Assembly: GCA_002421785.1 (NCBI GenBank)
Contig: DIRZ01000002.1
Coordinates: 300,001-332,000 of the forward strand
DNA: 32,000 nt
Origin: Candidatus Saccharimonadota bacterium
GTDB lineage: Bacteria > Patescibacteriota > Saccharimonadia > Saccharimonadales > Saccharimonadaceae
Direction of reading: 5' to 3'
Part shown: piece after piece, positions 5,587-27,975 of the stretch
How positions within the stretch are numbered: position 1 is the first letter of the stretch
How the letters are laid out: the number at the start of each line of letters is the position of its first letter
Position numbers and translations under genes: made by a program
Notes under the pieces: model-generated
Seen by the model: the letters and a program-made list of their open reading frames with translations, nothing else
Told to the model about the DNA's origin: nothing
The model's database searches: none

Positions 5587-6177
5587 ATGAAACAACCAAT
5601 AAAATCAGCTCTTGCACTGAGTAGCGCAGTTGTCGCTGTCGTTGGACTTGTTCTTGCGCCAGTCGCCGCAGACGCTGCAAGCACAACTACTGTGACGGCG
5701 GTTCTTTCGGGAAGCGCATCTGTCTCATCGACAGGCACAACAGTATCACTTCCAATCACCCCAACAGTGAGCGGATCGTTTACGGCTGCTGCTGACACAG
5801 TTGTTGCGGGTACAAACAACCCAACAGGTTATAAGCTACAAATTAGTGGTACGCCAACAGCATTGACCAAGGGTGCCGATACTATTGCTGCATCATCTGG
5901 TACTCCTACAGCTGCTATCGCTCTTGCACCAAACACCTGGGGCTACCATGTTGATGGTCAATACAACTTTGCAGGAAGCGGCGCAGCTGTTACTAACCAG
6001 GCAAGCCTTGCGGGTACTTGGGCAGGCGTGACTGGCACGGCGGTTGATATTAAAACTGTTGCGACAGCTACTGCTTCAGACTCAACATCTGTCTGGTTTG
6101 GTGCTGGTGCAACCACTGCAAAGCCTGCGGGTAACTACGCGGCCGTTGTCACTTATACAGCAGTAACAAACCCATAG
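5587..6177 (+). CDS. secreted surface protein, WxL-domain-like layout
   Basis: Signal peptide MKQPIKSALALSSAVVAVVGLVLAPVAADA. The mature part is T/A/G/S-rich and Cys-free. GYKLQIS and NTWGYHV sit mid-domain, and the C-terminal strand PAGNYAAVVTYTAVTNP resembles the terminal aG-Y-x-x-LTWTL-x-x-P strand of WxL proteins with W replaced by Y. Confidence 0.75.
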   Translation: MKQPIKSALALSSAVVAVVGLVLAPVAADAASTTTVTAVLSGSASVSSTGTTVSLPITPTVSGSFTAAADTVVAGTNNPTGYKLQISGTPTALTKGADTIAASSGTPTAAIALAPNTWGYHVDGQYNFAGSGAAVTNQASLAGTWAGVTGTAVDIKTVATATASDSTSVWFGAGATTAKPAGNYAAVVTYTAVTNP

Positions 6178-6190
6178 GCACATTAGACGC

Positions 6191-7886: not shown

Positions 7887-7902
7887 GGATTCCTGCTATA
7901 CT
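7872..7902 (+). promoter_or_regulatory. internal promoter candidate with extended -10 TGCTATACT
   Basis: TTGTTC at 7872-7877 and TGC+TATACT at 7894-7902. ATG 7912 lies 9 nt downstream with no SD. The same 10-mer TGCTATACTA recurs at 16267-16276. Confidence 0.4.
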
Positions 7903-7911
7903 AGAAATACC

Positions 7912-9237
7912 ATGAGGGGTATTGTTAGGCGCATAGTACTAGCTGGCGGCGCGATCGCCATTTTGGGCGGATTCTACGAGGTTTCGGCAGATACCTTTAG
8001 CTCGACAAACTACGTGATTAATGCGAGTGTCATGAACAGCACCGGTGGCCTGGGCACATCGACGAGCTACAAGCTAGTGAGTAGCGCGGGCGAGAGCGTA
8101 ATCGGAGATGGAGCAAGCGGTAGCTACAAAATGAGCGCAGGCTACGTCGCGCAACTGCAGCAGGCTGCTCCGCAGTCGATGACACTTGCGGTGCAGCCGA
8201 GCGGGCTTGTCGGGTATTATCCGCTGGACGAAAATACAGGTACGGTAGCGGGTGATGACTCTTCTAACGCTGCTCACGGCACACTTGTCGGTTCACCAAC
8301 CTGGGCAACGGGACAAGTGGGCTCTGCGTTGACATTCAACGGTTCGTCACAAGCGGTATCGGTGGGGAATAACTCACAAACACAGCTAACGAACGGCACT
8401 GTTTCCGCGTGGGTTAAGTCGACGGCCAGCACTGGTACTCGCGCCATTGTGCACAAACTAAATAGCTATTATCTCCAGTTTAGTGCTGGTAAAGTTGCAC
8501 TGTACGATTGGACGGGGGCAACCACCTGTGCGGCGACTGCTAGCTCTACGGATGGCAACTGGCATCATGTGGCAATGACGCTGCAAAGCGGGGTATCGAA
8601 TGGCACTACCCTGTATGTTGATGGCGCAGCAGTAAAAACATGCACGTGGACGCCCGTTAGCCAAACGGGGAGCCTGGTTATTGGGGCGGCGTACTCCGGT
8701 TCGTATAGTGACTACTTTGATGGAACGATTGACGAAGTAAAGTTGTTTAGTCGCGTGCTCAGCGCAGACGAAGTTGCGGCAGAACGATCGGCGGGCGTCG
8801 CTGGGTTCCCGGCCGGCGTTGCTATCAGTAATATCATTCCAGGCAGTCCGGCAAGCGTAACGGCGGATGCAATTGTAGAAACAGTAAACGTACCAAATTA
8901 CACGCTCACCATCAATCAAGATCACGATTTGCAAAATGGCGGCAACACTATCGCGGCGATTAGCGGTTCGATTGCATCGCCGGCGGCATGGTCGAATGGC
9001 ATCACTAAGGGGTTTGGTTTCACGCTGGTTTCTGCGCCGGGGCTGGACGGCAAGTGGGGAAGTGGGGCTAATTACGCGGCGGCACCTGGCTCGGCAACGA
9101 CGTTCTATACCCGGACTGGGGCGAGCAACTCTGTGAAAGACGTGGTGGCAATGCGACTTAAAGCCGACACAACACTCAGCACTCCAGCTGGCCAGTATAC
9201 CAATCAGCTAACGATAACAGGGACAATTACACCGTGA
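7912..9237 (+). CDS. LamG/concanavalin-like lectin-domain surface protein with a WxL-like C-terminal module
   Basis: Signal/anchor MRGIVRRIVLAGGAIAILGG. LamG-type signature: GYYPLDENTG, GTLVGSPTWATGQVGSALTFNG, VSAWVK, WHHVAMT, LYVDGA, YFDGTIDEVKLFSRVLSADEV. The last ~130 aa parallel the 5587 product and end PAGQYTNQLTITGTITP. Start trimmed to ATG 7912; the ORF-track 7819 start would overlap the upstream gene. Confidence 0.8.
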   Translation: MRGIVRRIVLAGGAIAILGGFYEVSADTFSSTNYVINASVMNSTGGLGTSTSYKLVSSAGESVIGDGASGSYKMSAGYVAQLQQAAPQSMTLAVQPSGLVGYYPLDENTGTVAGDDSSNAAHGTLVGSPTWATGQVGSALTFNGSSQAVSVGNNSQTQLTNGTVSAWVKSTASTGTRAIVHKLNSYYLQFSAGKVALYDWTGATTCAATASSTDGNWHHVAMTLQSGVSNGTTLYVDGAAVKTCTWTPVSQTGSLVIGAAYSGSYSDYFDGTIDEVKLFSRVLSADEVAAERSAGVAGFPAGVAISNIIPGSPASVTADAIVETVNVPNYTLTINQDHDLQNGGNTIAAISGSIASPAAWSNGITKGFGFTLVSAPGLDGKWGSGANYAAAPGSATTFYTRTGASNSVKDVVAMRLKADTTLSTPAGQYTNQLTITGTITP

Positions 9238-10079
9238 GTCGCTATTGGTTGGCCATCATTTTTGCGCTGGGTTTGACCTTTTTATGTAACAGTTCACCCG
9301 CAGCCGCCTCATCAATCCGCCTCCAGCCCGCAATTGTTCGTGGCGAGCTTGAGGGTGGCGAAAAACAAAAAGGCTATATTGACGTCATTAACCCTGATTC
9401 CTCAAAGATTGTCGTGTCGTTTAGTGTGCAGGCATTTCGGCAAAAGGACGACAGTGGGGCGGTTGAGTTCTATGAGGATGCGCAGCTGAGCCGGGGCCTA
9501 TTACTCGATTTTAACGAAGTGGAGCTAGGCGGTCACGAGGCACTCAGGCTTTATTACCAGGCGGATGCAGCGCTACTACCGGCCGGGGACGTACTCGCGG
9601 CTATCTTTGCTACGGTGAAGCCCGTTAAGGATGCGCCGGCTGCCCAAGCGGTGCGCGTCGGTACCTTGCTGGTGTTGCAGAATACTAGTACGCCCAAGCG
9701 CCAGCTCGCAGTGGCGGAACTGTCGGCAAGCCCGTTGCAGTTTGGTTCGGCCCTCCAGGCCGAGTTTGCTTTGCGGAATGATTCTCCACCTGTCAACGCG
9801 TTCTTCCCACAGATTACCGTGAGCACTGCGCCCTATGGGAAGCAGGTTGTAGAAGGCCCATTGGTGACGTCGGGGCGTCAGCGAACCATTAGCTATGTAA
9901 AACCAGGTGATTATTTAGGCCCCGTTAAGGTAACGGTAAGTGTTGATGGCGGCCAAAAATCGGCGTGGATTTTTGCTATAACAGGTTTCTGGCAGTGGCT
10001 GTTTCCGCTGCTGCTTGGCATTGTTGCAACAATCTTTGCGATATTCCGTATGCGAACTGTTTATAACAGGGGTAGATAA
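9234..10079 (+). CDS. second CscA-like / chaperone-like beta-sandwich protein with a C-terminal TM anchor
   Basis: GTG start overlaps the LamG gene stop (GTGA), suggesting translational coupling. Signal peptide LAIIFALGLTFLCNSSPAAA. SIRLQPAIVRGELEGGEKQKGYIDVINPDSSKIVVSFSVQAFRQ has the same architecture as the 6191 product. C-terminal TM WQWLFPLLLGIVATIFAIF plus RMRTVYNRGR. Confidence 0.7.
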   Translation: MSRYWLAIIFALGLTFLCNSSPAAASSIRLQPAIVRGELEGGEKQKGYIDVINPDSSKIVVSFSVQAFRQKDDSGAVEFYEDAQLSRGLLLDFNEVELGGHEALRLYYQADAALLPAGDVLAAIFATVKPVKDAPAAQAVRVGTLLVLQNTSTPKRQLAVAELSASPLQFGSALQAEFALRNDSPPVNAFFPQITVSTAPYGKQVVEGPLVTSGRQRTISYVKPGDYLGPVKVTVSVDGGQKSAWIFAITGFWQWLFPLLLGIVATIFAIFRMRTVYNRGR

Positions 10080-10205: not shown

Positions 10206-13200
10206 GTGTTGTTATTCTTCGTGCTACCGGCGTTAGCCACTGCAGTAGCACTTGTTTGCTTTGGTCAAACTGCCCAGGCAGTGCAGACCGTCCCCTATAA
10301 AATGAACTTCCAAGGCCGCCTAACTGATGCCGTTGGCACGCCAAAACCTGATGGTATCTACAACATTAAATTCCGCATCTACAACGCCGCCAACACTGCC
10401 GTTTGGACGGAAGACCGTTTAGTCTCTGCCAGCCAAGGTGTCCAAGTCACGGGTGGCCTATTTACCGTCCAGCTCGGGAGTATTACTCCTCTCGACCCCG
10501 CACTCTTTAACACAGCTACCACCAACCAAAACGGCATGACCCTTGAAGTTGAGCTGCCAACCCCCGCGACTGCTACCTCCAGCTCCCCAAGCTGGACAGA
10601 AGGCGCCATGACGCCTCGTAGCCCCCTGGCTACCAGCGCCTATGCGTTCAATAGCGATACGCTGGATGGGTTGGATAGCACTGATCTCGTCCGTAACCAA
10701 AACTCCGCCCAGCAAACTGCCAGCAACTTCTGGATTAGCGGCACAGGCCGTGCTGACACCGCCCTCCAAGCTCCCCTCATCGACACTGCCACTGCGACCG
10801 CCCTTAACATCGGTACTACCAATGCCACCCTCATCAACCTCAACAAAGACGTCGCCGTCGCCGCAGGCAAGAGCCTCACCCTCGCCGGTGGCACCACCGC
10901 CAGCCGCCCAGGCACGCCAACCGAAGGCATGATCTACTACGACACCGACACCAAACAACTCCTGACGTATGCGAATGGGAAGTGGCAGGCGGATGGCAAA
11001 GAAGCCATCATTGTGGCAGCAAGTAACTCTAGCGATGCCGACAAGGCAAGTGCCGACTACGTAGCAGACGGCAACACTGCTGCCGCTGCAGATGGTGATC
11101 AGGTGCAGATCAATAACGCGCTGACCGCAGCAGCGGGTAAAAAGGTTGTCTTGCTGGCCGGAACCTATACTGCCGACGCGTCCATCCTTATTCCGAACAA
11201 TACGACGCTGGCTGGGGTAGGCAAAGGGACCTTAATCAAGCTAGCCGATATTGATGTCACTGAGAACTTGATTGAAAACAGCGACACCACGACTGGTGCG
11301 GGCATTGTCATACGTGAACTGATGATAGACGGGCAAAAAGCTTTGAACACGGTGGGAATACAAAACGGTATTTATTTGAACGGAGTTGGGGATGGTACGG
11401 GCACTCGAAATGGAGCATCTGTTATTAACATCAGCGCTAGTGACTTTAATAATTACGGGATAGCGCTCTCGAATTCCAACAACTCTCTTATGACTGGGAA
11501 TACGTCACGTGGCAGTGTCGCTGGTATTATGTTAACTACGTCGTCGACGGTTAACACGGTCAGCAATAACATAGTACAGGGAAACGTCTATGGTATAGCT
11601 GTATTCAGCAATTCCAATAACAATACAATCAGTGCAAATCAGTTTAGCGGTAACACTGGATATGGCATCAGCCTACAGAGCGCCCACAACAACACAATCG
11701 ATACGAATATGCTGCAGGGCAACTCTTCAAGCATATCCTTGATCACAAGCACCTCCAATACTGTAACGGGCAATACGGTTCAGTCGGGCACGTCAAATGG
11801 GATTACTGTGTCTAATAGCGCGGACGGCAATACTGTAACGGGCAATACGGTAGTAAATAGCGCTTCAAATGGCATTGCGGTTAGCTTGAGTTCAAAAAAC
11901 ACAATTACCGGAAACACGATTCAAAGTAGTGTCTCGCGGGGTATATATCTTTTTACTGCGCATAACAACACCGTGAGTGGTAATGCGATACATGATAGCG
12001 CGGGAGCGGGAAATAACTTTGGAGTTATGGCGGATGCTGCGGATTCTAACACAATTACCGGAAACACCATTACCGATACTGCTGCAACCACTAACTATGC
12101 CATTAGTATCGCTAATTCCACCTCCGACAAAAACTACCTTGCTGACAACGTTTTTAGTAGTACCCCTGGCACAGCGACCATTGAAGATCTCGGCACTGGT
12201 ACCACCTACGCCAACCAGCCGCGAGCAGAGAATGGCACCAGGCTTACCACTCGCACCACCAACAACACTGAAGCATTCGTTATTCAAAACGCCTCTGGCG
12301 CCAACCTGCTAACTGCCGATACAGCTAACGGTGAGATCGAACTTGGCTCGGCGTCGCTTGCTGGAAAACTTGTAGTGTCTGATGGCACCTCAAACACACT
12401 TACCTTGAGTGTCGCAGCCTTAGCCGGCAACTACACGGTCACTATCCCGACTATCACTGGAAACGATACTGTTTGTTTGCAGGCACTAGGTAACTGTGGG
12501 GGGGCTCCTAGTGGTACTACCGCTAGCCGCCCCGCAAGCCCCAGCGAAGGCATGATGTATTACGATACCGATACCGACAGCCTCGTGATTTATAGCAACG
12601 GAAGATGGCAAGCCGACAGTAAATCTACAACTTTTATTGTAGCCGCAAATAACTCTCCTCAGGCAGTTAAGGACTCGGCCGACTATGTCGCAAATGGGGA
12701 GGATAGCGTGGGTTCGGGTATTGGGACGCTCGACGGTGATCAGGTGCAGATTAACGATGCGATTAATGCTGCCGCTGCCGCAAGTCCTGCTGGCGGTACC
12801 GTGTATCTCTCAGAAGGTGTCTATACGTTGGATGGGCCGATTGTGATAAAGAATAATATTACATTGGCGGGATCGGGCATGGGGACGGTGATTCAGTTCG
12901 GTAACTTTGGCGCAACAGCCACGAATGTAAACATGGTCACAAACTTCGATACGAGCACAGGAACCGGTGTTATAGTGCGGGATATCCGCCTAGATGGGCG
13001 TGATGGCATCAATACAAACGGCACGCAAAACGGCATATATTTTACAGGTATGGGTGCGAATAGTGGGCCGAGCGCGAGGAGTGGGGCTACTGTTACCAAT
13101 ATCTATGCCAGGGACTTAAAAAATACCGGGGTATATGTTGGCGGTGCAAATAACAAATTGGCCAACAATACAGTTCAAGGAAGTGATACTGCTATATGGT

Positions 13201-15752
13201 TGCAGGTAACTTCGAATACATCTGTCACGAACAATACTGTTCAGGGGAATGGCACCTACGGAATATACCTGGTCTCGTCACTGGATAATACGCTCGCCGG
13301 TAACGTAGTTCAGGGGAACACGTATGGAATTCATTTGGCAACATCTTCAACCGGTAATGCAATTTCGTCAAATACTGTTCAGGGAAATACGAACTCGGGT
13401 ATATATATTGCATCGTCATCGGCGAATAATACAATTTCTTCAAACACCCTAACAGGAAACTCTACATACGGCGCTTACCTTGCAACATCTAACAATACAG
13501 TTACGGGCAACACTATACGAACAGGGGCGACTGGCCTTTACTTGACGGGCGCTTCAAATAACGGAATCACTGGTAACAACTTTGTCGGCAATACAGTGGC
13601 GGGAGTATCGCTCGCTGCATCATCAAACAGCAATGCTATCGCGAGCAACAAGGTGGATGGTACAGGTGGCTCGACTGGTAATAACGGCATATACTTGGCC
13701 GCATCTGACCTGAACAGCATTAGCAACAATGATATTACTGATGGCGCGGCTTCTGGGTCGAATCATCCAATAAACATTAGCGACGCAGGCTCTGATAACA
13801 ACTACTTGGCGAGTAACCGCTTTAGCACGACACCTGCGAATGCGACAATAAATAACCAGAGTACAACCACGAAATTATCAAATCAACCACTCGCAGAAAA
13901 TGGCGGTCAAATTGCTAATCGTACCAATAATGATGCAGCTGCTTTTAGCGTGCAGACTGCTGGTGGCGTCAGTGTCATGACTGTTGATACGGCTAATAGT
14001 GAGGTTGAAGTCGGGGGCGCGATTATTGCAAGTGGCGCAATCAACGGGCTAACGGTATCTTCTGGAACGATTTCGGTTGGCACCTGGCAGGGATCACAAA
14101 TTACAGATGGATATATCTCTGATACGTTAACATCATCGAAGTTTATCGGTAGCGGATCGACTACTGATGGTGTAGACTTGGGCTCTGCTGAGGTAAGCGG
14201 CACACTTGGGGCGACAAGCGGCGGCACTGGCCAAACAACGACTGCAGTAGGTGATTTGCTCATTGGTGCCGCAGGAAATACATGGAACAAGCTTACTATT
14301 GGAGGTAATGGCACTTGCTTAACGTCGAACGGCACGACTGCAGCATGGATTGCATGTGGCGGCAGTTTACAGGCATCATACGCAGCTGATGCCGACGGTA
14401 GTGACGCCATCATCGCCCTCACGGCAACAGACGGTGGCATACTCCTGCAAGACGCAGCCACGCCGCTTGCGACTGCATTTGCGGTGCAAAGCAACGGCGG
14501 TACCGCCACCTACTTCAGCGCATCATCAACTGGCGTGGTCATGCAGGACGCCGCAGGGAACAGCGGATTACTATTTGACTCAACCACGAGCGAACTCCGG
14601 GTTTATGAAAACGTGGCTTCACCAACACGTTATGCCAAGGTGTACTATGATACCGCAACCAACACCGCAATCTTTGGGGCGAGTAGCGGCGCCACACAGA
14701 TTGGCAACTCGGGAACGGGTGGCGACATCAACCTTTCTCTCACTGGATCAACCAATGATAAGCTCAATGCAAATAAAACATTTACACCTACGAGTGGCTA
14801 CTCAGGCTCGGATTTCAACTTTACTCGCAACTTCACAGGTACGGCATATGCGTTGACGGGAAATCTCATGAAGATAGAAGACACGAGTACGTTCACGGGC
14901 GGCTCTAGCGCGCCAAACTTGCTGTATATCAACCAGAACAACACCGGTGCGACAGGCAATCTTATTTTGGCCCGGACGGGCGGAGCAGCAGACAAATTTA
15001 AGGTTGATGTTGCAGGTAACATGACCACTGCAGGCACGGCAACGGTTGGCGGCAATGTGTCGATTGCAGCAGGAGCTTCGTATACAGGTGCCGGTGCTGT
15101 CACAGTGTCGTCTGCCGCCGGGACGAACCTTACGCTTTCTGCGAGCACCGCCGCTCGCATCGTACTCGACAGCACCAATAGCAGGGTCGCAATCGGAACA
15201 TCAGACACGACGGGTACATTGCTGGTGCTCGACACAAAGACAGATGCTTCTGAGCCTACGGCTGTAGCAGGTGGTATGTACTATAACAGTAATATTGGCG
15301 GGGGCACATTCCGTTGTAGTGTAAACGGTAGCACCTGGGAAAATTGTTTGAATGACGTTGTGACATACAGGTTGTTTGCTACTGTCGCCCCTAACACGGT
15401 TGGCACAACTGCCGTACCTGCCGATACTGTAGCTGCTACAAACTTGGGAACTACGGCTAAATACTTTGGCGCACCAATCTTAGCAAAAATGGATGGCTAC
15501 ACTACAATAAGGGTAATATTCCGTGGAGCTAATGCAGGTAGACAGTCAGGTACGGTAACGTATAAAATTAGGAACATCACGGATAGTACCGACTTAATTA
15601 CAGGCACCTTTAGCGATACAACAGTTTCAACTCGCGAGGCGTCGGCTGCGGTTTCGCTGACGGGTATTAAACGGCTAAGCTTTACGGCGGCTTCTTCAGT
15701 GACAGCGGATGACCCATTGTTTGGTGATGTGATGGTGCAGCTAGAGCGATAA
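10206..15752 (+). CDS. giant secreted parallel beta-helix (PbH1/NosD-type repeat) surface protein, adhesin-like
   Basis: 1848 codons. Signal peptide LLFFVLPALATAVALVCFGQTAQA. Two long arrays of 22-23-aa turns such as NNTISANQFSGNTGYGISLQ, NNTIDTNMLQGNSSSISLI and SNTVTGNTVQSGTSNGITVS. Composition is T/N/S/G/A-rich and almost Cys-free. The start codon is uncertain (GTG 10206; see findings). Confidence 0.85.
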   Translation: MLLFFVLPALATAVALVCFGQTAQAVQTVPYKMNFQGRLTDAVGTPKPDGIYNIKFRIYNAANTAVWTEDRLVSASQGVQVTGGLFTVQLGSITPLDPALFNTATTNQNGMTLEVELPTPATATSSSPSWTEGAMTPRSPLATSAYAFNSDTLDGLDSTDLVRNQNSAQQTASNFWISGTGRADTALQAPLIDTATATALNIGTTNATLINLNKDVAVAAGKSLTLAGGTTASRPGTPTEGMIYYDTDTKQLLTYANGKWQADGKEAIIVAASNSSDADKASADYVADGNTAAAADGDQVQINNALTAAAGKKVVLLAGTYTADASILIPNNTTLAGVGKGTLIKLADIDVTENLIENSDTTTGAGIVIRELMIDGQKALNTVGIQNGIYLNGVGDGTGTRNGASVINISASDFNNYGIALSNSNNSLMTGNTSRGSVAGIMLTTSSTVNTVSNNIVQGNVYGIAVFSNSNNNTISANQFSGNTGYGISLQSAHNNTIDTNMLQGNSSSISLITSTSNTVTGNTVQSGTSNGITVSNSADGNTVTGNTVVNSASNGIAVSLSSKNTITGNTIQSSVSRGIYLFTAHNNTVSGNAIHDSAGAGNNFGVMADAADSNTITGNTITDTAATTNYAISIANSTSDKNYLADNVFSSTPGTATIEDLGTGTTYANQPRAENGTRLTTRTTNNTEAFVIQNASGANLLTADTANGEIELGSASLAGKLVVSDGTSNTLTLSVAALAGNYTVTIPTITGNDTVCLQALGNCGGAPSGTTASRPASPSEGMMYYDTDTDSLVIYSNGRWQADSKSTTFIVAANNSPQAVKDSADYVANGEDSVGSGIGTLDGDQVQINDAINAAAAASPAGGTVYLSEGVYTLDGPIVIKNNITLAGSGMGTVIQFGNFGATATNVNMVTNFDTSTGTGVIVRDIRLDGRDGINTNGTQNGIYFTGMGANSGPSARSGATVTNIYARDLKNTGVYVGGANNKLANNTVQGSDTAIWLQVTSNTSVTNNTVQGNGTYGIYLVSSLDNTLAGNVVQGNTYGIHLATSSTGNAISSNTVQGNTNSGIYIASSSANNTISSNTLTGNSTYGAYLATSNNTVTGNTIRTGATGLYLTGASNNGITGNNFVGNTVAGVSLAASSNSNAIASNKVDGTGGSTGNNGIYLAASDLNSISNNDITDGAASGSNHPINISDAGSDNNYLASNRFSTTPANATINNQSTTTKLSNQPLAENGGQIANRTNNDAAAFSVQTAGGVSVMTVDTANSEVEVGGAIIASGAINGLTVSSGTISVGTWQGSQITDGYISDTLTSSKFIGSGSTTDGVDLGSAEVSGTLGATSGGTGQTTTAVGDLLIGAAGNTWNKLTIGGNGTCLTSNGTTAAWIACGGSLQASYAADADGSDAIIALTATDGGILLQDAATPLATAFAVQSNGGTATYFSASSTGVVMQDAAGNSGLLFDSTTSELRVYENVASPTRYAKVYYDTATNTAIFGASSGATQIGNSGTGGDINLSLTGSTNDKLNANKTFTPTSGYSGSDFNFTRNFTGTAYALTGNLMKIEDTSTFTGGSSAPNLLYINQNNTGATGNLILARTGGAADKFKVDVAGNMTTAGTATVGGNVSIAAGASYTGAGAVTVSSAAGTNLTLSASTAARIVLDSTNSRVAIGTSDTTGTLLVLDTKTDASEPTAVAGGMYYNSNIGGGTFRCSVNGSTWENCLNDVVTYRLFATVAPNTVGTTAVPADTVAATNLGTTAKYFGAPILAKMDGYTTIRVIFRGANAGRQSGTVTYKIRNITDSTDLITGTFSDTTVSTREASAAVSLTGIKRLSFTAASSVTADDPLFGDVMVQLER
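10890..14020 (+). repeat. in-frame tandem duplication of a ~1.6 kb (~540 aa) module inside the beta-helix gene
   Basis: Module heads: ASRPGTPTEGMIYYDTDTKQLLTYANGKWQAD (from ~10899) and ASRPASPSEGMMYYDTDTDSLVIYSNGRWQAD (from ~12523). Both continue with DGDQVQIN, a beta-helix array and a tail: NQPRAENG...AFVIQNASG...TADTANGEIELG versus NQPLAENG...AFSVQTAGG...TVDTANSEVEVG. Confidence 0.8.
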
Positions 15753-15759: not shown

Positions 15760-16221
15760 CTATTTTTTGAAAGAAGTGGCAATGGCTACGAAATCGGCAT
15801 ACTTCATAGTTGTAGGGCCGGTCAATATAATCCAGTTGTCGTCAATCTGCATGCTGGCCGTAAGTCTACCCCTGATCTGACCGATAGTGGCATTATTGAT
15901 GGTTTCCGGTAGGCCGAGCTGTTCTTTTTCGAACTTCTCTATAATCGCGCGGTCGGGTTGGGGTTGAATACTAACATTTAACAGTTCGGAGGCTGTTTTA
16001 ATAATATATACGGTCGCTGAGCTTGTTTGGCTGAGGCTACTTTGGTCTACGGTGTAGCCACTCGGCAAGGCAGAAGGGTAATAAACGGCAGCTTGGGTGG
16101 ACTGAGCGTTTTGTACTACTTGGGGTTTAATAAAAACCCTATTTGTCAGTGCCGCTCCAGCTAAAATCGCAATGGATAACACGGCTACTGCGGCAAAAAA
16201 TAGTTGCTTTTTCTTGGACAT
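15760..16221 (-). CDS. membrane-anchored hypothetical protein on the opposite strand between the two giant genes
   Basis: MSKKKQLFFAAVAVLSIAILAGAAL is a signal-anchor, followed by a ~125-aa extracytoplasmic domain. ATG at 16221 is preferred; GTG at 16239 is the alternative. It lies 7 nt from the beta-helix gene stop, in convergent orientation. Confidence 0.6.
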   Translation of the reverse strand: MSKKKQLFFAAVAVLSIAILAGAALTNRVFIKPQVVQNAQSTQAAVYYPSALPSGYTVDQSSLSQTSSATVYIIKTASELLNVSIQPQPDRAIIEKFEKEQLGLPETINNATIGQIRGRLTASMQIDDNWIILTGPTTMKYADFVAIATSFKK

Positions 16222-16266
16222 GTTTTTATTGTAGCGCACAACAACCTGTTATATGCATGTGCTTTT

Positions 16267-16275
16267 TGCTATACT
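16267..16275 (+). promoter_or_regulatory. extended -10 element TGCTATACT upstream of the Kelch giant
   Basis: TG at 16267-16268 and TATACT at 16270-16275, in the 16240-16307 divergent intergenic region. No good -35 is present. Confidence 0.4.
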
Positions 16276-16319
16276 ACTTGCATATAGATATAGGGGTAGA
16301 GCGACTTGTGTTTAAACTG

Positions 16320-19300
16320 ATGTTGAGGCCTGTGAAGCGGCAAGCTGGGAATCGGATACGGTACAATACTAAGCGCGGAAGGCGCGTTATAGATCGAGTA
16401 TTTCATATGGTCGCAAACTTTTATAATGCAGTGGCTGCGCCATTACAAACGCGACACCAGCATCTTATGGTTAAGCACGCGTTTATGCGCACCCTCTGGT
16501 TCCGTACCATCTTGCACCTCTCGGTCATCCTGCTCATCATCTCACCACTCTATGCTGTGTTAGATTACGTCCTGAAAGACATCAGCTACCGCATATCCGA
16601 CAAAGAATCCGCCCTCGTCAGCGCCTCGACCGTGGATAGCGACTTCATTAAACAATCCGACACCGCCATTACCTACAACCGCGCGGACGAAGCAGCAGGA
16701 GACAAAGACCTCCAAACCGTCCTGACGCTCGCTGCCAACAAAGAAGACGCCACTGGCAAAAAACCCTACCAAGCCGAACTTTCCAAAAACGCCAAACAAG
16801 GCATTACCTTTAGTGACAGCGAAGGTGACCGCAGCGTCACCTTAACGCCTACCTTTACCGTAGGCGAAGCTCGCCTGCAGGACAACCGCGTGGTCTACCC
16901 GGCCAGCACCACCGAAAAGCACATCTACAGCTTTAAGAACAACGGCATCAAGAGTGACATCTTGCTCACCCAAGCGCCCGGCACTAACACCAAAACCTAC
17001 AGTTGGGACCTTGGTCTAGACAGTACTCTTGAAGCCCGTATGCTGCCTGACGGGGGAGTGGGTATCTACTCAGCTGACCCAACTCTCTACAGCAACCTCC
17101 AAATCTCTGACCAAAAGAGCCAAGAGCTCGTCGACAAAGCACGCACCAATGCCCAAAAGAACACCTTGGTCTTCGAGCTGCCACGTCCCTTCATTCTCGA
17201 CGCCAACAACAAACAGATTTACACTGGTGTGAGCTACGGCCTGACCAACGACAAAGCCGACGACAAAGGCAACAAAAACAACGCCACCACCCTCACTCTG
17301 ACAGCCGCCAACCTCAAACAGCAAGCCTATCCACTCAGCATCGACCCAACCATTACAGTCACCACCACCGCGGACTTCCGCCAAAACACCGGCGATACGG
17401 GCAATGTGGACTTCGGGACGGATGGGGAGATTAGGAGGGGAGCTGGTGGCTCGGGTGCACTTGCTACTGCTGTCCAGCAGAACGGCATATTTTCGCCGGC
17501 GCGGAGTGGCCACACTTCCGTCGCCTACAACGGCTACCTGTACATTATCGGAGGGACAAATGGTACGCGCCAGAATGACATCCAGTACTGCTCACTTGGA
17601 TCAGACGGTGCGGTCGGTAGCTGTACGCAACAAGCTAACGCTTTTACGACCGCCCGCGAGCTTCATACTTCCGTCGCCTACAACGGCTACCTGTACATCA
17701 TTGGAGGTGATGGTGGCTCAAATCTTAACGATGTGCAGTATTGCCCTTTAAACTCCGATGGCACTGTCGGTGCGTGCGCGTCGACAACTAGCTTCACAAC
17801 TGCCCGTTCTAGCCATACATCCGTCGCCTACAACGGCTATTTGTATGTGATCGGAGGAGTGCACGCCGCTTCTGATACTGCTTGTAATGGGGCTGCCTCT
17901 GTTTATTGCTCCGATGTTCAGTATGCTCCCTTTAATGCCGATGGCACGCTCGGTACCTGGACTGCCACCACTAGTTTTACTACCGCTCGCTCCGAGCATA
18001 CCTCCGTCGCCTATAATGGTTACTTCTATGTTATAGGTGGTAGAGACATCTCAGATATTACTAATATCCAGTATGCTCCCGTCAACGCCAACGGCACAAT
18101 CGGTACGTGGACTGCTACGACAAGTCTTGACAAGGTCAGAAGCGGGCATGCATCAACAATCGCTAATGGCTATCTGTACGTATCGGGCGGACACAATGGT
18201 CTTGGTCTTGAGGACACAGTGGTAGGTGCTCCGCTAAGGGCTAACGGTACTATCGGTGACTGGAATCTCGGCAATGTCTTCACTACTGGGCGAGGGTTTC
18301 ACGCCTCCGTTTCGCATAATGGATACATGTACATAATAGGTGGAACTGACGGAGGGGCTGACCAAAATGACATTCAGCGCCTCAAGGTCAACCCACTCGT
18401 AGTAGGCGGCTCGATCTCCCAAGGTACTATCCTTACTGCTCGCCAGGGGCACACGGCAGTTGCCTATAACGGTGCAATCTACATCGCTGGCGGTTGCTCA
18501 TCAGTCTTTATTACCTGTAACGGCTATCGTAGCGACATTCAGCGCTGTCCGCTCAACGCCGACGGCTCAGTGGGGACGTGCGTGAACCAGACGGCAACCA
18601 TAACCGGGGCTCGCGAAGGTCATGGCTCGATTATCTATAACGGCTACCTATATATCATCGCAGGTACTACTGGTACGAGGCAATCAGATATACAAAACTG
18701 CAATATTGCCGCAGACGGCACTATTGCTTCATGCAGTCAACAAACAAATCGCGTAGTGACGGCACGTGATGGGGTGGGTGAAGCGGTCGCAGTTAGTGAC
18801 GGGTACCTATATCTTACGGGTGGCAATACCGATTCGCTGCAAAATGACATTCAGCATTGCAAAATAAATACTGATGGAACAGTGGATGTTTGCACGCAGC
18901 AGACTGCTATGTTTACAACTGCCAGACGCGGTCACTCCACGGTGATATATAACAACTACATCTATATCATTGGTGGCCTGACTGGCTATTTGCGCGACGT
19001 TATCCGTTGCTCAATCAACCTGTCGACCCACGCCGTGAACAACGACTGTACTCAGCAAGCCAATATACTAAACCAGGGTCACGGTGATTTCAGCGCTTTT
19101 GTTCACAACGGGTACCTCTACTCTGTCGGTGGTACGTATTCCTCGGGCAACTACCTTAACACTGTCGAGTATTGCCCGTTCAATAGTGACGGCTCGATCG
19201 GTGCCTGTACCACCCAGACCGCCGTATTTACGACGGCTCGTCAGAACCAAGCGACCGTGCTCTGGAATGGCTTCATGTACATCATAGGAGGGTATGGCGG

Positions 19301-21059
19301 TAGTCACCTCGGCGATATACAGCGTATGCAAATAGGTCGCCCAAACGGTGTGGCGGGCGCAGCTACGCAGCAAACGAGCGCATTTGCCACGGCGCGTCAG
19401 GGACAAAGCTCGGTGGTCGCAGGTGGCTATTTGTATATCATCGGTGGTACGGATGGCACCCGGCGCAACGACATCCAATACTGTGCGATGGGTGCAGACG
19501 GGCTGGTGGGGGCATGCACCTTGCAATCAGGCGCGTTTACCACGCCTCGCGACGGGCATACGAGTGTGGTGTATGATGGCTATTTGTATATTATCGGGGG
19601 GCAGAGTGGGGCATCGGCATACGAAAATGATATCCAGCGCTGTCAGATACTGAGCAATGGTTCAGTCGACACCTGTACCCAGCAAACTGGCGCGTTTACA
19701 ACCGCGCGTACAGAACACAGTTCTGTCGTCTATGATGGCTATTTGTATATTATCGGGGGCACCAACGGTACTGCGCAGAACGACATTCAGTATTGCGCGA
19801 TTAACGCTGACCATACTGTAGGCACGTGCACGCAGCAAACGAGTGCTTTTGCGACGGCTCGCTACGCACATACCTCACAAGCGTATAACGGGTATCTGTA
19901 TATTACGGGTGGCTATCACGACACTAGTGACACGCTATGTAGCCCGACGACGAGTTCCAATTACTGCTCGGATATTCAATATTGTCAACTCAACACGAAC
20001 GGTACCGTCGGTGCGTGTCTTACGCTGTCAGGCGCGTTCGTTACTCCGCGCTCCGACCACTCAACTGTTTTTTACAATGGCTATCTGTACGTGATGGGCG
20101 GCACTAATGGGACGAAACTCGGTGATATCCAGTATTGCCCCGTGAGAGCCGACGGCGTCGTGGAGTCATGCGTGGTGCTTGGGAGCGGTTTTAGCCCGGC
20201 TCGTTCGGGGCATAGCTCGGTTGTGTATAGTGGACGTATCTACATTATTGGGGGTGAGCAGGCGACGGCCAACATTGCCTGTAATGCAAGTTCCTCGGTG
20301 TATTGTTCTGATATCCAACGAGTTTCGGTCGGCAATATAACAGACGATGCTCGTTATGAGCGCCTGATCAAGATAGGTGAGTCAGAAACTAAGTTGAGTT
20401 CATTTACGGTTAGCGGCGACGCTACTTGTCGGTATGTCGTAGTCTATAAAACTGCTGGCGATGATGGGGTGTTTGGGTCGGTGACAAGACTAGACAATGT
20501 TATACCTGGTGCCGCACAGTCGCTCGGTGATATTGTTAAAAAGTATATCCATATCACCGTTGAGTTGCAGGGTGCCTCCTGTGGTGGTAGTGCGAGCGTT
20601 ACGAGTATCGCTGTCGCGTACATTTCAGCCCCAACTGCGCCGACTCTCATCAGCCCAGCTGACGCGGCGCTGGACGTTAGTTTATCCCCCGAGTTCAGCT
20701 TGTCTACTACAGACGGAGATGGCGATACCATCAAATACAAAATCGACATCTGCAGCGTGAGCGACTGTGCATCTGTCGTGCGCAGTATCGATCAAACTGT
20801 TTCAGCAACGGGTTGGTCGGCAGCCAGCTATGCGAGTGGCGCAACGGCTACCTATACTCTTGTAGCACCCGCACTCAACGAAACAACGCAGTACTGGTGG
20901 CGAGCGGCTGCTATCGATGAAGCCGGCTCAAACACGTGGAGCGTTTACTCTCCTATATCTACATTTACAACGCTCAGATCCACCACGCCGACGGATATAT
21001 CCATATCGGGTGGCGGTGTGACTATCTATGGTGGGTCAGAGCTAACAACAGGGAACTAG
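16320..21059 (+). CDS. giant membrane-anchored Kelch-repeat (18-blade) surface protein with a C-terminal FN3-like domain
   Basis: The start is uncertain: GTG 16308, ATG 16320 or ATG 16407. The ORF-track start 16143 overlaps the divergent gene and is rejected. TM helix TILHLSVILLIISPLYAVL. 18 blades of the type ARSGHTSVAYNGYLYIIGG...DIQYC...DG.VG.C. The C-terminal module APTLISPADAALDVSLSPEFSL...IKYKIDIC...TQYWWRAAAIDEAGSNTWSVYSPISTFTT is FN3-like. Confidence 0.85.
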   Translation: MLRPVKRQAGNRIRYNTKRGRRVIDRVFHMVANFYNAVAAPLQTRHQHLMVKHAFMRTLWFRTILHLSVILLIISPLYAVLDYVLKDISYRISDKESALVSASTVDSDFIKQSDTAITYNRADEAAGDKDLQTVLTLAANKEDATGKKPYQAELSKNAKQGITFSDSEGDRSVTLTPTFTVGEARLQDNRVVYPASTTEKHIYSFKNNGIKSDILLTQAPGTNTKTYSWDLGLDSTLEARMLPDGGVGIYSADPTLYSNLQISDQKSQELVDKARTNAQKNTLVFELPRPFILDANNKQIYTGVSYGLTNDKADDKGNKNNATTLTLTAANLKQQAYPLSIDPTITVTTTADFRQNTGDTGNVDFGTDGEIRRGAGGSGALATAVQQNGIFSPARSGHTSVAYNGYLYIIGGTNGTRQNDIQYCSLGSDGAVGSCTQQANAFTTARELHTSVAYNGYLYIIGGDGGSNLNDVQYCPLNSDGTVGACASTTSFTTARSSHTSVAYNGYLYVIGGVHAASDTACNGAASVYCSDVQYAPFNADGTLGTWTATTSFTTARSEHTSVAYNGYFYVIGGRDISDITNIQYAPVNANGTIGTWTATTSLDKVRSGHASTIANGYLYVSGGHNGLGLEDTVVGAPLRANGTIGDWNLGNVFTTGRGFHASVSHNGYMYIIGGTDGGADQNDIQRLKVNPLVVGGSISQGTILTARQGHTAVAYNGAIYIAGGCSSVFITCNGYRSDIQRCPLNADGSVGTCVNQTATITGAREGHGSIIYNGYLYIIAGTTGTRQSDIQNCNIAADGTIASCSQQTNRVVTARDGVGEAVAVSDGYLYLTGGNTDSLQNDIQHCKINTDGTVDVCTQQTAMFTTARRGHSTVIYNNYIYIIGGLTGYLRDVIRCSINLSTHAVNNDCTQQANILNQGHGDFSAFVHNGYLYSVGGTYSSGNYLNTVEYCPFNSDGSIGACTTQTAVFTTARQNQATVLWNGFMYIIGGYGGSHLGDIQRMQIGRPNGVAGAATQQTSAFATARQGQSSVVAGGYLYIIGGTDGTRRNDIQYCAMGADGLVGACTLQSGAFTTPRDGHTSVVYDGYLYIIGGQSGASAYENDIQRCQILSNGSVDTCTQQTGAFTTARTEHSSVVYDGYLYIIGGTNGTAQNDIQYCAINADHTVGTCTQQTSAFATARYAHTSQAYNGYLYITGGYHDTSDTLCSPTTSSNYCSDIQYCQLNTNGTVGACLTLSGAFVTPRSDHSTVFYNGYLYVMGGTNGTKLGDIQYCPVRADGVVESCVVLGSGFSPARSGHSSVVYSGRIYIIGGEQATANIACNASSSVYCSDIQRVSVGNITDDARYERLIKIGESETKLSSFTVSGDATCRYVVVYKTAGDDGVFGSVTRLDNVIPGAAQSLGDIVKKYIHITVELQGASCGGSASVTSIAVAYISAPTAPTLISPADAALDVSLSPEFSLSTTDGDGDTIKYKIDICSVSDCASVVRSIDQTVSATGWSAASYASGATATYTLVAPALNETTQYWWRAAAIDEAGSNTWSVYSPISTFTTLRSTTPTDISISGGGVTIYGGSELTTGN
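17490..20340 (+). repeat. array of 18 Kelch-type blade repeats (48-62 codons each), partly identical at the DNA level
   Basis: Counted in translation; see finding. Perfect 32-nt direct repeat ACTTCCGTCGCCTACAACGGCTACCTGTACAT at 17514-17545 and 17667-17698. Perfect 29-nt repeat TATGATGGCTATTTGTATATTATCGGGGG at 19572-19600 and 19731-19759. Confidence 0.85.
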
Positions 21060-21094: not shown

Positions 21095-21112
21095 TAACAG
21101 AGTTAATTAGTG

Positions 21113-21646
21113 ATGTATGGGGGTATGATGGAAGGAATTGGACGACCGGTGCAACATACTGCAAAACCAGTGCAAGCAGCACGCTTAGCACAGCATGATA
21201 CGGGCGAGCCTGTACGGGCCAGGAAGAAGCCTCGGACAAAGAAGCCGATGGTGTTTATCGGTATCATCGTAGCACTGTTGCTAGTGGTGGGCGGTTGGTT
21301 TGCGGTGCAGTACTACACCTACAGGGGTATCGATACTAGTCGTTACCAGGCCGTATACCTGGACAACGAGAATGTTTATTTTGGCAAAGTACAGTACATG
21401 CTGAACGGTGACGTGTTGCTTGATGATGTATTCCGTGTACAAGCAGGTGAGGCCACGGCAGCCGAGGGTGAGGGCGCGGCTACCGCAGCTGACATTCGCC
21501 TCATCAAACCAGGCAACGAACTCCATGCGCCAGATGACACGATGCGGATTACGCGATCTAAAGTTGTGTTCATCGAAAACCTCAAGACTGACGGCAAGGT
21601 AACGCAGGCCATCACTGATTACCTAAAAGACAAAAGTGTTAAGTAG
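21113..21646 (+). CDS. membrane-anchored hypothetical protein
   Basis: Basic N-terminal segment (RARKKPRTKKP), then TM MVFIGIIVALLLVVGGWFAV, then a ~115-aa outside domain. Several in-frame starts are possible (21110 GTG, 21113 ATG, 21248 ATG). Confidence 0.6.
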   Translation: MYGGMMEGIGRPVQHTAKPVQAARLAQHDTGEPVRARKKPRTKKPMVFIGIIVALLLVVGGWFAVQYYTYRGIDTSRYQAVYLDNENVYFGKVQYMLNGDVLLDDVFRVQAGEATAAEGEGAATAADIRLIKPGNELHAPDDTMRITRSKVVFIENLKTDGKVTQAITDYLKDKSVK

Positions 21647-24101: not shown

Positions 24102-25889
24102 ATGGCAGACACCAGCGTCAAACAACAGATTGTCGACAAGATAAAAGACAGCAACAACGTGTTGGTGACGGTTAATAGCAATCCTTCGGTTGACGAACTC
24201 AGCGCTGCGCTTGGTATTACGCTGCTCATTAACAAGCTCAACAAACACGCCACAGCAGTGTTTAGTGGGGCCATTCCATCTGCTATCGAGTTTTTGGAAC
24301 CAGAAAAGACGTTTGAAAATACGGTAAATAGCCTGCGAGATTTCATCATTGCCCTCGACAAGGAAAAGGCCGACCACTTACGCTATAAAGTAGTGGACGA
24401 CATGGTGAAGATATTTATTACGCCGTACCGCACGACTATCAATGAGAATGATCTTGATTTTAGCCAAGGCGATTACAACGTCGAAATGGTACTTGCCATT
24501 GGTGTCAAAAAGGAAGAAGACCTGGACAAGGCACTTGAAAGCCATGGTCGTATTCTTCATGACGCCACTGTGGCGGCAATATCGCTCGATACGCCTAGCA
24601 ACCTGGGCGGCATTGAGTGGGTAGATAGCAAAGCGAGTAGTTACAGCGAAATGCTGGTTGCTCTTGCTGACGCGCTCAAGAATGACAAGCGCCTGATTGA
24701 TGAGCAAATTTCAACGGCATTTTTGACGGGCATTGTGGCGGCAACCGACCGATTCAGCAACGAGAAAACATCGGCGAACGTCATGACCGTTGCTGCTGAG
24801 CTAATGGCCGCCGGGGCAAACCAGCAATTAATTGCCATTAAACTCGAAGAGGGGAATTCGATTAGCGCTTCTGCACCTGCTCCGTCAAGTGACGGTGAAC
24901 TTCGGGAAGGCGAGTCAACCAAGGTGAATCGAGTCGAGGAAAGTGTTCCGCTAAAGCCCGCGAAGGCAAGCGATGGTTCAGGAGCGCTGACGATTTCACA
25001 CTACCCAGAGGGCGACGTGGACGAAGTTGCAGCACAAGTGGCTGCGGACAATTCCCAGCAGGCAGCCAACCGCGCCGAAGAAGAACTTGCTAAGCACACA
25101 GCTGCTGTGGATACGCATGATGATGCCGTGGAAGCAGCAGAACAGAAATTTGCCGAACAACTCGCAGCAACCGCACCAGTTGTGCCACCACTACCGACCG
25201 CTGCTGACTTTGCGGCACCCGGCCCTGCTATCGAACCACTCCGTGGCGCAGTGCCATCGCATCAGTGGCGTGCTCATGCTGATACTGAAGCAGGGGAGCC
25301 AACGCTAGGCGGCACCTTGAACGCTACCACTGAGCAAGCCGAAGAAGCCAAACGCCAGGAACTTGCTGACGATCGGAATCGAACTATTTTAAGCCACGGC
25401 GGCGGCGGATATGTTGCTGGTGAGCCAACGTACCAAGCGCCGTTAAACGCTGCTATGGATGACGCCAACAAGGAGCCTGAAGTACGGGATATCTTTGCGA
25501 GCGGAGCTCAGACCGAAGCGACGTCCCACGTCAACGCAATCCAACCACCGATGCCGACTGTCCCTGCGCCAACACTTGCCGAAATTGATCAACAGAACCG
25601 TCACCATAGCGATGCCATGAGTGCAGTGAACGCTGCATTTGACAGTCCTGCACCCACCCCTGCCGCACCGTTTGGGCAATCAGTTTCTCCGGAGCTTCCT
25701 CCGCTTCCTCCAATGCCTGATTTCTCAACGCTTCCTCCGCTTCCTGGCGCGCCTGCTCCTGAGCTTGCGGCAACCCCTGTGTCGGTGCACGAAGAACTCG
25801 GCAATCTATTGCCTCCACTTCCTGCGGAACAGCCAGTTATTGGTTCAAACCCTGTTGATCCTGCACAGTTCAAAATCCCTGGCCAGTAG
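24102..25889 (+). CDS. DHH-phosphoesterase-like protein with degenerate catalytic motifs and a ~330-aa Pro/Ala/Glu-rich tail
   Basis: The N-terminal ~260 aa follow the NrnA-like layout: NVLVTVNSNPSVDELSAALGITLLINKLNKHATAVFSG, IIALDKEK, MVKIFITPYR. The expected DHH triad reads FIT. The remainder is low-complexity and ends LPPLPPMPDFSTLPPLPGAPAPE. Confidence 0.65.
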   Translation: MADTSVKQQIVDKIKDSNNVLVTVNSNPSVDELSAALGITLLINKLNKHATAVFSGAIPSAIEFLEPEKTFENTVNSLRDFIIALDKEKADHLRYKVVDDMVKIFITPYRTTINENDLDFSQGDYNVEMVLAIGVKKEEDLDKALESHGRILHDATVAAISLDTPSNLGGIEWVDSKASSYSEMLVALADALKNDKRLIDEQISTAFLTGIVAATDRFSNEKTSANVMTVAAELMAAGANQQLIAIKLEEGNSISASAPAPSSDGELREGESTKVNRVEESVPLKPAKASDGSGALTISHYPEGDVDEVAAQVAADNSQQAANRAEEELAKHTAAVDTHDDAVEAAEQKFAEQLAATAPVVPPLPTAADFAAPGPAIEPLRGAVPSHQWRAHADTEAGEPTLGGTLNATTEQAEEAKRQELADDRNRTILSHGGGGYVAGEPTYQAPLNAAMDDANKEPEVRDIFASGAQTEATSHVNAIQPPMPTVPAPTLAEIDQQNRHHSDAMSAVNAAFDSPAPTPAAPFGQSVSPELPPLPPMPDFSTLPPLPGAPAPELAATPVSVHEELGNLLPPLPAEQPVIGSNPVDPAQFKIPGQ

Positions 25890-27273: not shown

Positions 27274-27975
27274 ATGGATATCGAGCTATATAGCGGCGCA
27301 ACCAAAGCGATTATTTCGACCAAGGGGGGGTACGTGACGAACCTTTCCGACGATAAGGGCGATGTGCTGTTCCCGAAGCGTGTGCTAACGGCGGCTGATG
27401 GGAGTGAAAAAACGAGGGGTGGTTGCCACGTGTGCCTTCCTAACTTTGGTCCTGGTGGAGACTCAGGGCTGGAGCAGCATGGGTTTGGCCGCGTGCGCGA
27501 ATGGCGCGTCGTCACCCAGTCGCCAAGCTCCGTAGAGCTTGTGCTAGCAGGCGAGGGCGAGTACGCGGATATGGAGTCGTTTTTGCGCTACGAAGTGGCT
27601 GAAGGCCGCTTTACGCTGCAATTAACACTAAAAAACAAGGGGACAGTACCCCTTATTGTGTCACCTGGCTTCCATCCGTATTTTTACCGCGGTAAGCAGG
27701 CGCCTACTATTGAAGGCGCGGTGCACGAAGATCTATCAGCATTTTCAGAAGTCAGATTTATCGACGGTCCTTCCCAGTACATTGTTACTGCAGGTCGCCA
27801 TGTGCAGTTGGAATCGCAGGGTCTGCCACGCTATGCACTGTGGACCGATCAACTTGGGGACTATGTGTGCGTGGAGCCTACTCAGAGCGGAAACGCATTC
27901 CTTGAAGACGTGTCACGAGCCGATACATTGTCGCCCAGTGGTGAGCGAGCTTACCAGTTTGCCATTGCATGGTAG
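27274..27975 (+). CDS. aldose 1-epimerase family protein (hexose-6-phosphate mutarotase-like)
   Basis: GGCHVCLPNFGP...EQHGFGRVREWRV parallels the GGIP-CFPWFG...HGFAR..W signature of YeaD-type mutarotases. A strong SD (AGGAGG) lies 5 nt upstream of the ATG. Confidence 0.7.
   Translation: MDIELYSGATKAIISTKGGYVTNLSDDKGDVLFPKRVLTAADGSEKTRGGCHVCLPNFGPGGDSGLEQHGFGRVREWRVVTQSPSSVELVLAGEGEYADMESFLRYEVAEGRFTLQLTLKNKGTVPLIVSPGFHPYFYRGKQAPTIEGAVHEDLSAFSEVRFIDGPSQYIVTAGRHVQLESQGLPRYALWTDQLGDYVCVEPTQSGNAFLEDVSRADTLSPSGERAYQFAIAW

Follow-up and report, generated by a model that had tools for sequence, protein, structure and literature searches.

An array of 18 Kelch blades in a predicted surface protein of a Candidatus Saccharibacteria bacterium, most likely folded as three six-bladed propellers

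A stretch of 32,000 nucleotides from the genome of a Candidatus Saccharibacteria (Patescibacteria) bacterium, of an ultrasmall and epibiotic type, was analysed (NCBI GenBank assembly GCA_002421785.1, contig DIRZ01000002.1, positions 300,001 to 332,000 of the forward strand). The whole of this stretch is referred to here as the window, and all positions are given within it. At 16485..21059 on the + strand is the gene for a Kelch-array surface protein of 1524 amino acids (aa), in which 18 repeats most likely fold, on the predicted model, as three six-bladed propellers. Most of the blades have a pair of cysteines, and the sixth blade of each propeller has none, probably since its outer strand would come from upstream of the propeller (velcro closure). 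The explanation taken as a whole, with its architecture, hairpin staple, velcro closure and function as a binding platform, is given a probability of roughly 0.6.

The array was split on its core of a hydrophobic run and GG into 18 repeats of 50 to 63 aa at residues 453 to 1402 of the open reading frame (ORF) (17499-20348), the ORF being numbered with residue 1 at nucleotide 16143. The Pfam model Kelch_1 (PF01344) matches 16 stretches of the array (E 1.5e-68, 226 bits, cut-off 20.1), PF24681 matches with 263 bits (E 2.5e-78, cut-off 50), and Kelch_6 scores 175 bits. The GG doublet is found in 17 blades and AG in one, and the residues at blade positions 2 and 15, an Arg in the loop between strands 4 and 1 and a Tyr in strand 3, hardly vary (entropy 0.57 and 0.08 bits). 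With Kelch profiles above the gathering score and the GG, Arg and Tyr hallmarks in place, the repeats belong to the Kelch clan. The count of 18 Kelch-type blades in an earlier note, made from the sequence alone, was therefore borne out by both the repeat splitting and the matches to Kelch_1 and PF24681. A Pfam match to the FLYWCH zinc finger also sits on a Kelch blade and is regarded as spurious.

The Trp of strand 4 is a frequent but not obligatory hallmark of Kelch repeats. It is present here in blades 3 to 5 only, is replaced by a second Cys in 12 blades and is absent from blades 6, 12 and 18. Regular expression searches identified C-x10-C in 11 blades (1, 2, 7, 8, 9, 11, 13, 14, 15, 16 and 17) and C-x12-C in blade 10, reproducing exactly the list given in the earlier note, and its placing of Trp at the second-Cys column in blades 3 to 5 (GTLGTW, GTIGTW and GTIGDW) was likewise correct. 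The pattern DIQR(L/M/V)-x-(V/I) does, as claimed, match only blades 6, 12 and 18, which have Leu, Met or Val in the position of the first Cys; DIQR by itself is less specific and occurs also in blades 7 and 14, as DIQRC. Were the three blades that have neither Cys nor Trp placed at random, the chance of their falling at exactly 6, 12 and 18 would be 1 in 816. An extra insert with two Cys is present in the loop between strands 2 and 3 of blades 3, 7, 16 and 18; these are the blades previously listed, although for blade 7 the sequence quoted then, TCNGYRS, covers one Cys of a pair that reads GGC...TC. Each of the 36 Cys that follow the membrane helix has a possible local partner (24 in hairpins, 8 in inserts and 4 in the C-terminal part), and the N-terminal ectodomain has zero Cys.

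A recent duplication of six blades was considered as the source of the period and rejected. The mean identity of blades at lag 6 is 41.6%, no higher than at other lags, and no period-six signal was found in overall blade similarity, the period being confined to the strand-4 and Cys features. At the DNA level the copies are 60-80% identical and Tandem Repeats Finder makes no tandem-repeat call, thus the Kelch repeats are old at the DNA level and the period-six mark is structural rather than the trace of a recent duplication.

The array and C-terminal part (ORF residues 439 to 1638) were modelled with AlphaFold2 (AF2) from an alignment of 42 sequences. The mean predicted local distance difference test (pLDDT) score is 85.9 and the predicted template modelling (pTM) score is 0.49, the latter being expected for several domains whose mutual orientation is loosely defined. 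Within the array pLDDT falls below 50 only at model residues 313-317, 628-633 and 960-965, and overlaying the DSSP strand assignment on the blades places each of these stretches immediately beyond the third strand of blade 6, 12 or 18. The blades of the model have four strands each. In a Foldseek search of the PDB, complete six-bladed Kelch domains superpose on it with template modelling (TM) scores of 0.80-0.83 (target-normalised) and a root-mean-square deviation of 2.5-2.8 A over about 285 columns, these domains being the designed SAKe6 proteins, KLHL17, KLHL12 and NS1-BP. Since complete domains of this kind superpose, the model contains closed six-bladed propellers, and the four-stranded blades characteristic of Kelch domains are predicted within them. 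Structure prediction had been named in the earlier note as a check on the number of propellers, and the confidence breaks and the superpositions agree with three.

A strand-4-like segment, ALATAVQQNGIFSP, lies ahead of blade 1 and has equivalents after the linkers that follow blades 6 and 12, while neither the blade alignment nor the DSSP assignment has anything strand-4-like after blade 18. The array therefore runs from strand 4 to strand 3, which is the phasing expected of propellers closed by an orphan outer strand that completes the last blade. Propeller 1 (17457..18392, + strand) is made up of ALATAVQQNGIFSP as the orphan segment, blades 1 to 5 and strands 1-3 of blade 6, and its hairpins are, in order, C, C, W, W, W and none. 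Propeller 2 (18408..19337, +) follows a low-confidence linker (model residues 313-317) and consists of the orphan segment GGSISQGTILT, blades 7 to 11 and strands 1-3 of blade 12. Propeller 3 (19356..20330, +), after a second such linker (model residues 628-633), has the orphan segment GAATQQTSAFAT, blades 13 to 17 and strands 1-3 of blade 18. The hairpins of both propellers read C, C, C, C, C and none. At the position of the second Cys the orphan strands have Ala or Ser. In the ordinary blades the first Cys is in strand 3 (DIQY-C) and the second in strand 4 (G-x-C), within one hairpin. Blades 6, 12 and 18 have no hairpin to staple, as their strand 3 runs into the inter-propeller linker and not into a strand 4 of their own.

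Each propeller would thus begin with an orphan outer strand 4 and end with strands 1-3 of its sixth blade, which the orphan would complete. The five ordinary blades would have their strand 3-4 hairpin stapled, either by the Ala/Trp packing pair that is usual in the family or, in the Cys subfamily, by Cys-x10-Cys. The sixth blade, lacking such a hairpin, would have no pair, and this would generate the period-of-six signature. The velcro closure is inferred from the phasing, the confidence breaks and the homologues.

A protein search in which 8000 candidates were scored yielded 932 relatives. Nearly all of the named ones are annotated as 'hypothetical' or 'kelch repeat' proteins and come from Candidatus Saccharibacteria, Saccharimonadales or Patescibacteria. 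The homologues were each scored with a hidden Markov model (HMM) of the blade, built from the 18 blades. Among the nearest relatives the series of five Cys-paired blades and one without a pair (CCCCC.) is read twice (P0024, P0032 and P0043), three times (P0014, P0022, P0002, P0011 and P0040) or four times (P0001 and P0003). In the wider family the second-Cys column holds Trp, and many members read WWWWW. per module. The interval between blades that have no strand-4 aromatic or Cys is 6 in 70 cases, 5 in 12 and 7 in 5. The commonest number of blades is 18 (51 proteins), with further peaks at 12 (11), 24 and 30, and in P0077, P0033, P0084 and P0073 inserts between blades occur only at multiples of six.

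An exhaustive HMMER scan with propeller 3 returned 937 cluster representatives at E<=1e-30, including giants of 4000-7800 aa in which blocks of exactly six blades (WWWWW.) are split by spacers. There are 13 such blocks in P0121 and nine each in P0126 and P0127. P0121, P0126, P0127 and P0130 are distant relatives of 5000-7800 aa with 9-13 six-blade blocks and spacers of 50-70 aa or several hundred aa, and these very large multi-propeller proteins appear to be undescribed. The family as a whole, as judged by its sequences, gives support to six-blade modules that is independent of structure prediction. The grouping into three propellers, with every sixth blade closing one, is therefore supported by four independent lines that agree: the pLDDT breaks, the Foldseek superpositions, the intervals and counts of the relatives and the six-blade blocks of the giants. 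This was the arrangement put forward in the earlier note.

The same blades bear on the role of the Cys pairs. Of 1915 homologue blades, 335 have (Cys, Cys) in the two columns, 1110 have (Ala, Trp) and 22 have a lone Cys, and 304 of the 335 pairs have the x10 spacing. With Trp there in most blades of the wider family, and the (Ala, Trp) combination alone making up 1110 of 1915, the second-Cys column is homologous to the Kelch Trp. The both-or-neither rule is what a disulfide predicts, and the exchange of Ala/Trp for Cys/Cys is the behaviour of two side chains in contact, as far as sequences can indicate. A check on the conservation of the pairs had been suggested previously; the two positions covary almost perfectly. 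The loop between strands 2 and 3 contains no Cys in 1540 homologue blades, two in 351 and one in 22, and the Cys-pair inserts there come and go among homologues. It is very probable, from these patterns, that the C-x10-C pair forms a disulfide across the strand 3-4 hairpin.

Some observations weigh against the explanation. The counts of 335 and 1110 are taken over homologue blades that are not phylogenetically independent. The period-six mark is not universal, as P0010, P0004 and others keep Trp in all blades but the last, a pattern compatible with an orphan strand that has retained the Trp. The likeness of the N-terminal domain, described below, to accessory domains of carbohydrate enzymes is weak. 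By DSSP register the two Cys of a hairpin are not obviously directly opposite each other, and the G-x-C/W region resembles a beta-bulge. This last point would suit free thiols, metal ligands or a neutral, non-covalent replacement of Ala/Trp in place of disulfides. Such a role is quite improbable given that the covariation is nearly perfect (335 pairs versus 22 lone Cys), that each region of the ectodomain has an even number of Cys and that loop inserts always bring two Cys. In addition, the segment is extracellular, following an N-terminal membrane helix, and a blade offers two thiols without any conserved His or Cys to partner them, which is not a standard metal site. Other secreted proteins encoded in the window also have locally paired Cys. 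Disulfides are therefore the preferred reading of the pairs.

Blades 3 to 5 (17802-18287) fit the Trp-type family consensus DVQYAPxNAxGTxGTW, and the closest homologues have Cys pairs there. Mosaics of Cys and Trp blades are also found in P0012, P0103, P0005, L027 and L029. At the sequence level these mosaics suggest switching or recombination at the level of single blades between Cys-type and Trp-type copies.

The remainder of the protein is arranged around the array. It would be type-II-like, N-terminally membrane-anchored and extracellular. The membrane helix is followed, in the predicted order, by a domain of about 240 aa rich in beta structure, the three Kelch propellers of six blades each, which abut directly, a beta-sandwich, the FN3-like domain and a short tail rich in Gly. 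The gene is enclosed in a long ORF (16143..21059, +), and its start is uncertain, there being alternative in-frame ATGs at 16467, 16407, 16320 and 16257. Translation probably begins at an ATG in the range 16257 to 16485, and 16485 was adopted. Homologues align from the membrane helix onward and their basic N-terminal tails vary in length. A hydropathy scan identified a single hydrophobic membrane helix at ORF residues 118 to 146 (16494..16580, +), preceded by a basic segment, and no other segment of the protein hydrophobic enough to span the membrane. The AF2 model of the N-terminus has a long helix at its residues 2-35. The anchoring at the N-terminus that had been proposed before is supported by this helix, which, from its sequence, would be an N-terminal anchor or an uncleaved signal.

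After the helix is an extracellular, mostly-beta domain of about 240 aa with no Cys (16647..17366, +; AF2 pLDDT 74), which ends in the conserved motif YPLSIDPT. This domain is conserved in 78 Saccharibacteria loci. No Pfam family was matched, and the Foldseek matches are weak, the domain being paired with the beta-sandwich at the N-terminus of enzymes of the GH92, PL33 and GH97 families (E 1.5e-3, TM 0.27). Its model fits one unnamed viral protein in BFVD (A0A5Q2W7D1, E 1.2e-7, TM 0.42) better than any PDB entry.

The part that follows the propellers is all-beta with two conserved Cys pairs, according to the AF2 model and the homologue alignment. An all-beta domain of about 95 aa (20346..20624, +; DSSP strands at AF2 residues 964-1056) contains Cys 1429 and Cys 1480 in ORF numbering, both of which are invariant in the homologue alignment (A3). 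The last domain, FN3-like or Ig-like (20643..20972, +), has seven predicted strands, a C-x4-C pair and the motif YWWRAxAxD...WS...FTT. An FN3-like end to the protein had been claimed; it is plausible but weakly supported, by the seven strands and by a PDB profile search with FN3 domains on top at E 0.13-2. Pfam fn3 was not matched by this domain, and Ig_Rha78A_N scores below its cut-off (E 0.0037, 17.9 bits, cut-off 27.4). The protein ends in a Gly-rich tail, ISISGGGVTIYGGSELTTGN (20973..21056, +), which is predicted to be disordered (pLDDT <50) and is conserved in alignment A3, appearing in homologues as I-x-I-G-G-G-T-x-I-Y-G-G-T. Possible roles of this motif are in sorting, anchoring or strand donation.

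When one genome per species was scanned, the N-terminal domain and a Kelch array were found together in 78 loci, nearly all of them in metagenome-assembled genomes of Saccharibacteria or Saccharimonadales. Identity reaches 52% in the best of these loci, and there are genomes with two or more copies. About a dozen of the 78 are of the Cys type and the others are of the Trp type or mixed. On these sequences, the family is large and unnamed and occurs almost exclusively in Candidatus Saccharibacteria.

Upstream of the Kelch gene is a giant secreted protein of 1848 aa (10206..15752, +) with two right-handed beta-helix (NosD-like) modules matched by Pfam and NCBIfam. It has three local Cys pairs and no family was assigned to it beyond the repeats. 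Of 80 related loci, 43 have a homologue of this giant upstream of the Kelch gene. Such synteny suggests that the two function as a pair, and the beta-helix giant is a probable partner of the Kelch-array protein. Between the two, and divergent from the Kelch gene, is a gene for a small N-anchored protein (15760..16239, - strand) with weakly conserved counterparts in this position in relatives; its product has 26-28% identity by BLASTP (E 1e-5 to 1e-7) to those of the genes in the same place in L001 and L002, and there is a tblastn match in L006. Directly downstream of the Kelch gene is a gene for a small membrane protein (21110..21646, +), which is 53% identical to the gene after the Kelch gene in L001 and has homologues in 7 loci by tblastn. 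The closest syntenic contig, L001, keeps both of the flanking small genes and L002 keeps the upstream one. Neither flanking protein has any family assignment. The downstream order continues from the small membrane protein with fpg, holA and rpsT.

Elsewhere in the window, a run of five predicted secreted or anchored proteins is encoded at 5587-10079 (+). Two of the five (6191-7102 and 9234-10079) combine a signal peptide with a membrane helix and basic tail at the C-terminus, and another (7819-9237) has a LamG/concanavalin-like domain. The run has the look of a gene cluster for the cell surface and recalls the surface-complex loci of Gram-positive bacteria. At 24102-25889 (+) is a gene for a 595-aa protein with no Pfam match, a structured N-terminal half and a long Pro/Ala-rich C-terminal half of low complexity.

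The nearest known structures are six-bladed Kelch domains (PF01344 and PF24681; KLHL12, KLHL17, KLHL20, Keap1, NS1-BP and the designed SAKe6), which have the same repeat length, the GG doublet, Arg and Tyr hallmarks, four-stranded blades and the fold match described above. The KLHL/Keap1-type domains differ in that the protein here is extracellular and membrane-anchored with three propellers per chain, in that the spacing from Tyr to Trp is 12 and not the 7 or so of the Pfam Kelch consensus, making a longer strand 3-4 hairpin, and in that 12 of 18 blades have a Cys pair instead of the hallmark Trp. It is not a member of the BTB-Kelch (KLHL) proteins, as Pfam matched neither BTB nor BACK and the N-terminus consists of the membrane helix and beta-rich domain. 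Several closed propellers on one chain are also found in Limulus scruin, with two Kelch propellers, and in DDB1, with three WD40-like propellers. Both are cytoplasmic eukaryotic proteins, and DDB1 superposes poorly on the model (TM 0.17-0.18). The metagenomic giants P0121, P0126 and P0127 share the same unit of six blades, the sixth without a strand-4 aromatic, but have Trp and spacers of 50-70 aa or more between propellers, whereas the array here is spacer-less with Cys pairs.

Some Kelch propellers are enzymes, and a sugar mutarotase like NanM or an oxidase like galactose oxidase was considered. Several homologues are labelled 'N-acetylneuraminic acid mutarotase' by the Joint Genome Institute (JGI), and NanM/YjhT (COG3055), the periplasmic protein to which the label refers, is likewise bacterial, extracytoplasmic and a six-bladed Kelch protein. 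The Pfam models of the galactose oxidase central domain (Kelch_4 and Kelch_3) match the repeats, and there is an aldose 1-epimerase gene in the window at 27274..27975. However, NanM is a single propeller of about 370-390 aa, as opposed to the three in 1524 aa found here. No NCBIfam family, NanM included, is matched at E<=0.01, and there are no nan genes or other sialic-acid gene context in the 32 kb window. The Kelch_3 and Kelch_4 matches are generic matches to the repeat. Galactose and glyoxal oxidases are seven-bladed, with an axial copper site and a Tyr-Cys cofactor; the grouping here is in sixes, and the best fold matches are six-bladed Kelch domains that bind protein. Identity with NanM was rejected on these grounds, and an enzymatic role of either kind is most improbable.

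A function as a binding platform is preferred. The most variable positions across the blades are 3-4 and 20-25, which we take, from Keap1 and KLHL proteins, to be the D-A and B-C loops of the ligand-binding top face. The top faces of Kelch propellers are the usual ligand sites, as established for Keap1 and KLHL proteins, and the beta-helix fold is common in polysaccharide-binding and polysaccharide-cleaving proteins. There is also an experimental precedent in the same phylum for a surface-exposed beta-propeller in host attachment: PilX2, which is associated with a saccharibacterial type IV pilus and is needed for efficient host binding (PMC11623550). PilX2 differs in being a seven-bladed propeller of the RCC1 family, borne on a pilus instead of anchored in the membrane, and with no sequence relationship to the Kelch-array protein. 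From the extracellular location, the variable top-face loops, the inserts in the same loop, the beta-helix partner and the PilX2 precedent, it can be inferred by analogy that the protein is a surface binding platform, possibly for glycans of the host envelope. It would be rigid, oxidation-stabilised and multivalent, with three 'top' faces that carry the most variable loops. Together with the beta-helix giant it may recognise a host cell-envelope ligand, most plausibly a glycan, in an epibiotic lifestyle.

The three propellers abut without spacers and are rigidified by Cys pairs, the gene is chromosomal and adjoins the housekeeping genes fpg, holA and rpsT, and the family is very widespread with its architecture and partner genes conserved. 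These features would also be those of a structural component of the envelope, S-layer-like or a spacer scaffold, with propellers as rigid blocks that contact each other or the beta-helix protein and with no adhesin function. Such a role is unlikely, since the variability of the loops at positions 3-4 and 20-25, the gain and loss of Cys-pair inserts between homologues, and the paralogues and varying propeller numbers within the clade are more typical of diversifying binding surfaces than of a lattice protein. The binding platform could be taken further, with the Kelch-array protein and beta-helix giant as a Saccharibacteria-specific apparatus for host recognition and attachment, the propeller faces as interchangeable lectin-like receptor-binding modules, and the toggle between Ala/Trp and Cys-Cys as an adaptive switch by which platform stability is tuned to whether a habitat is oxidising or reducing. 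This extended proposal is speculative and, in all its parts together, unlikely.

The Kelch fold and the velcro-closed unit of six blades are textbook knowledge. The earlier note had called the platform unusual, which holds for the Cys-pair form as the rarer variant and not for arrays of several Kelch propellers, these being common in uncharacterised metagenomic proteins, as the 937 representatives indicate. Nothing on the family was found in the literature searched (Kelch with Saccharibacteria or Patescibacteria, tandem bacterial Kelch propellers, and giant Saccharibacteria surface proteins). Within that literature the Saccharibacteria-restricted family, its spacer-less three-propeller form and the systematic replacement of the Kelch Ala/Trp by a probable disulfide appear to be undescribed.

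The family offers a natural experiment for protein science, in which a probable disulfide has taken the place of the hallmark Kelch Trp and its Ala partner in individual blades. It also supplies a sequence rule, five stapled blades and one that is staple-less, by which the propellers in long Kelch arrays can be counted. Saccharibacteria and other Patescibacteria live attached to host bacteria, and the molecules of host recognition beyond type IV pili are largely unknown (PMC11623550). As a large and unnamed family that is nearly restricted to this phylum, predicted to be surface-exposed and syntenic with a giant surface protein of the beta-helix type, the Kelch-array proteins are a concrete candidate for host recognition.

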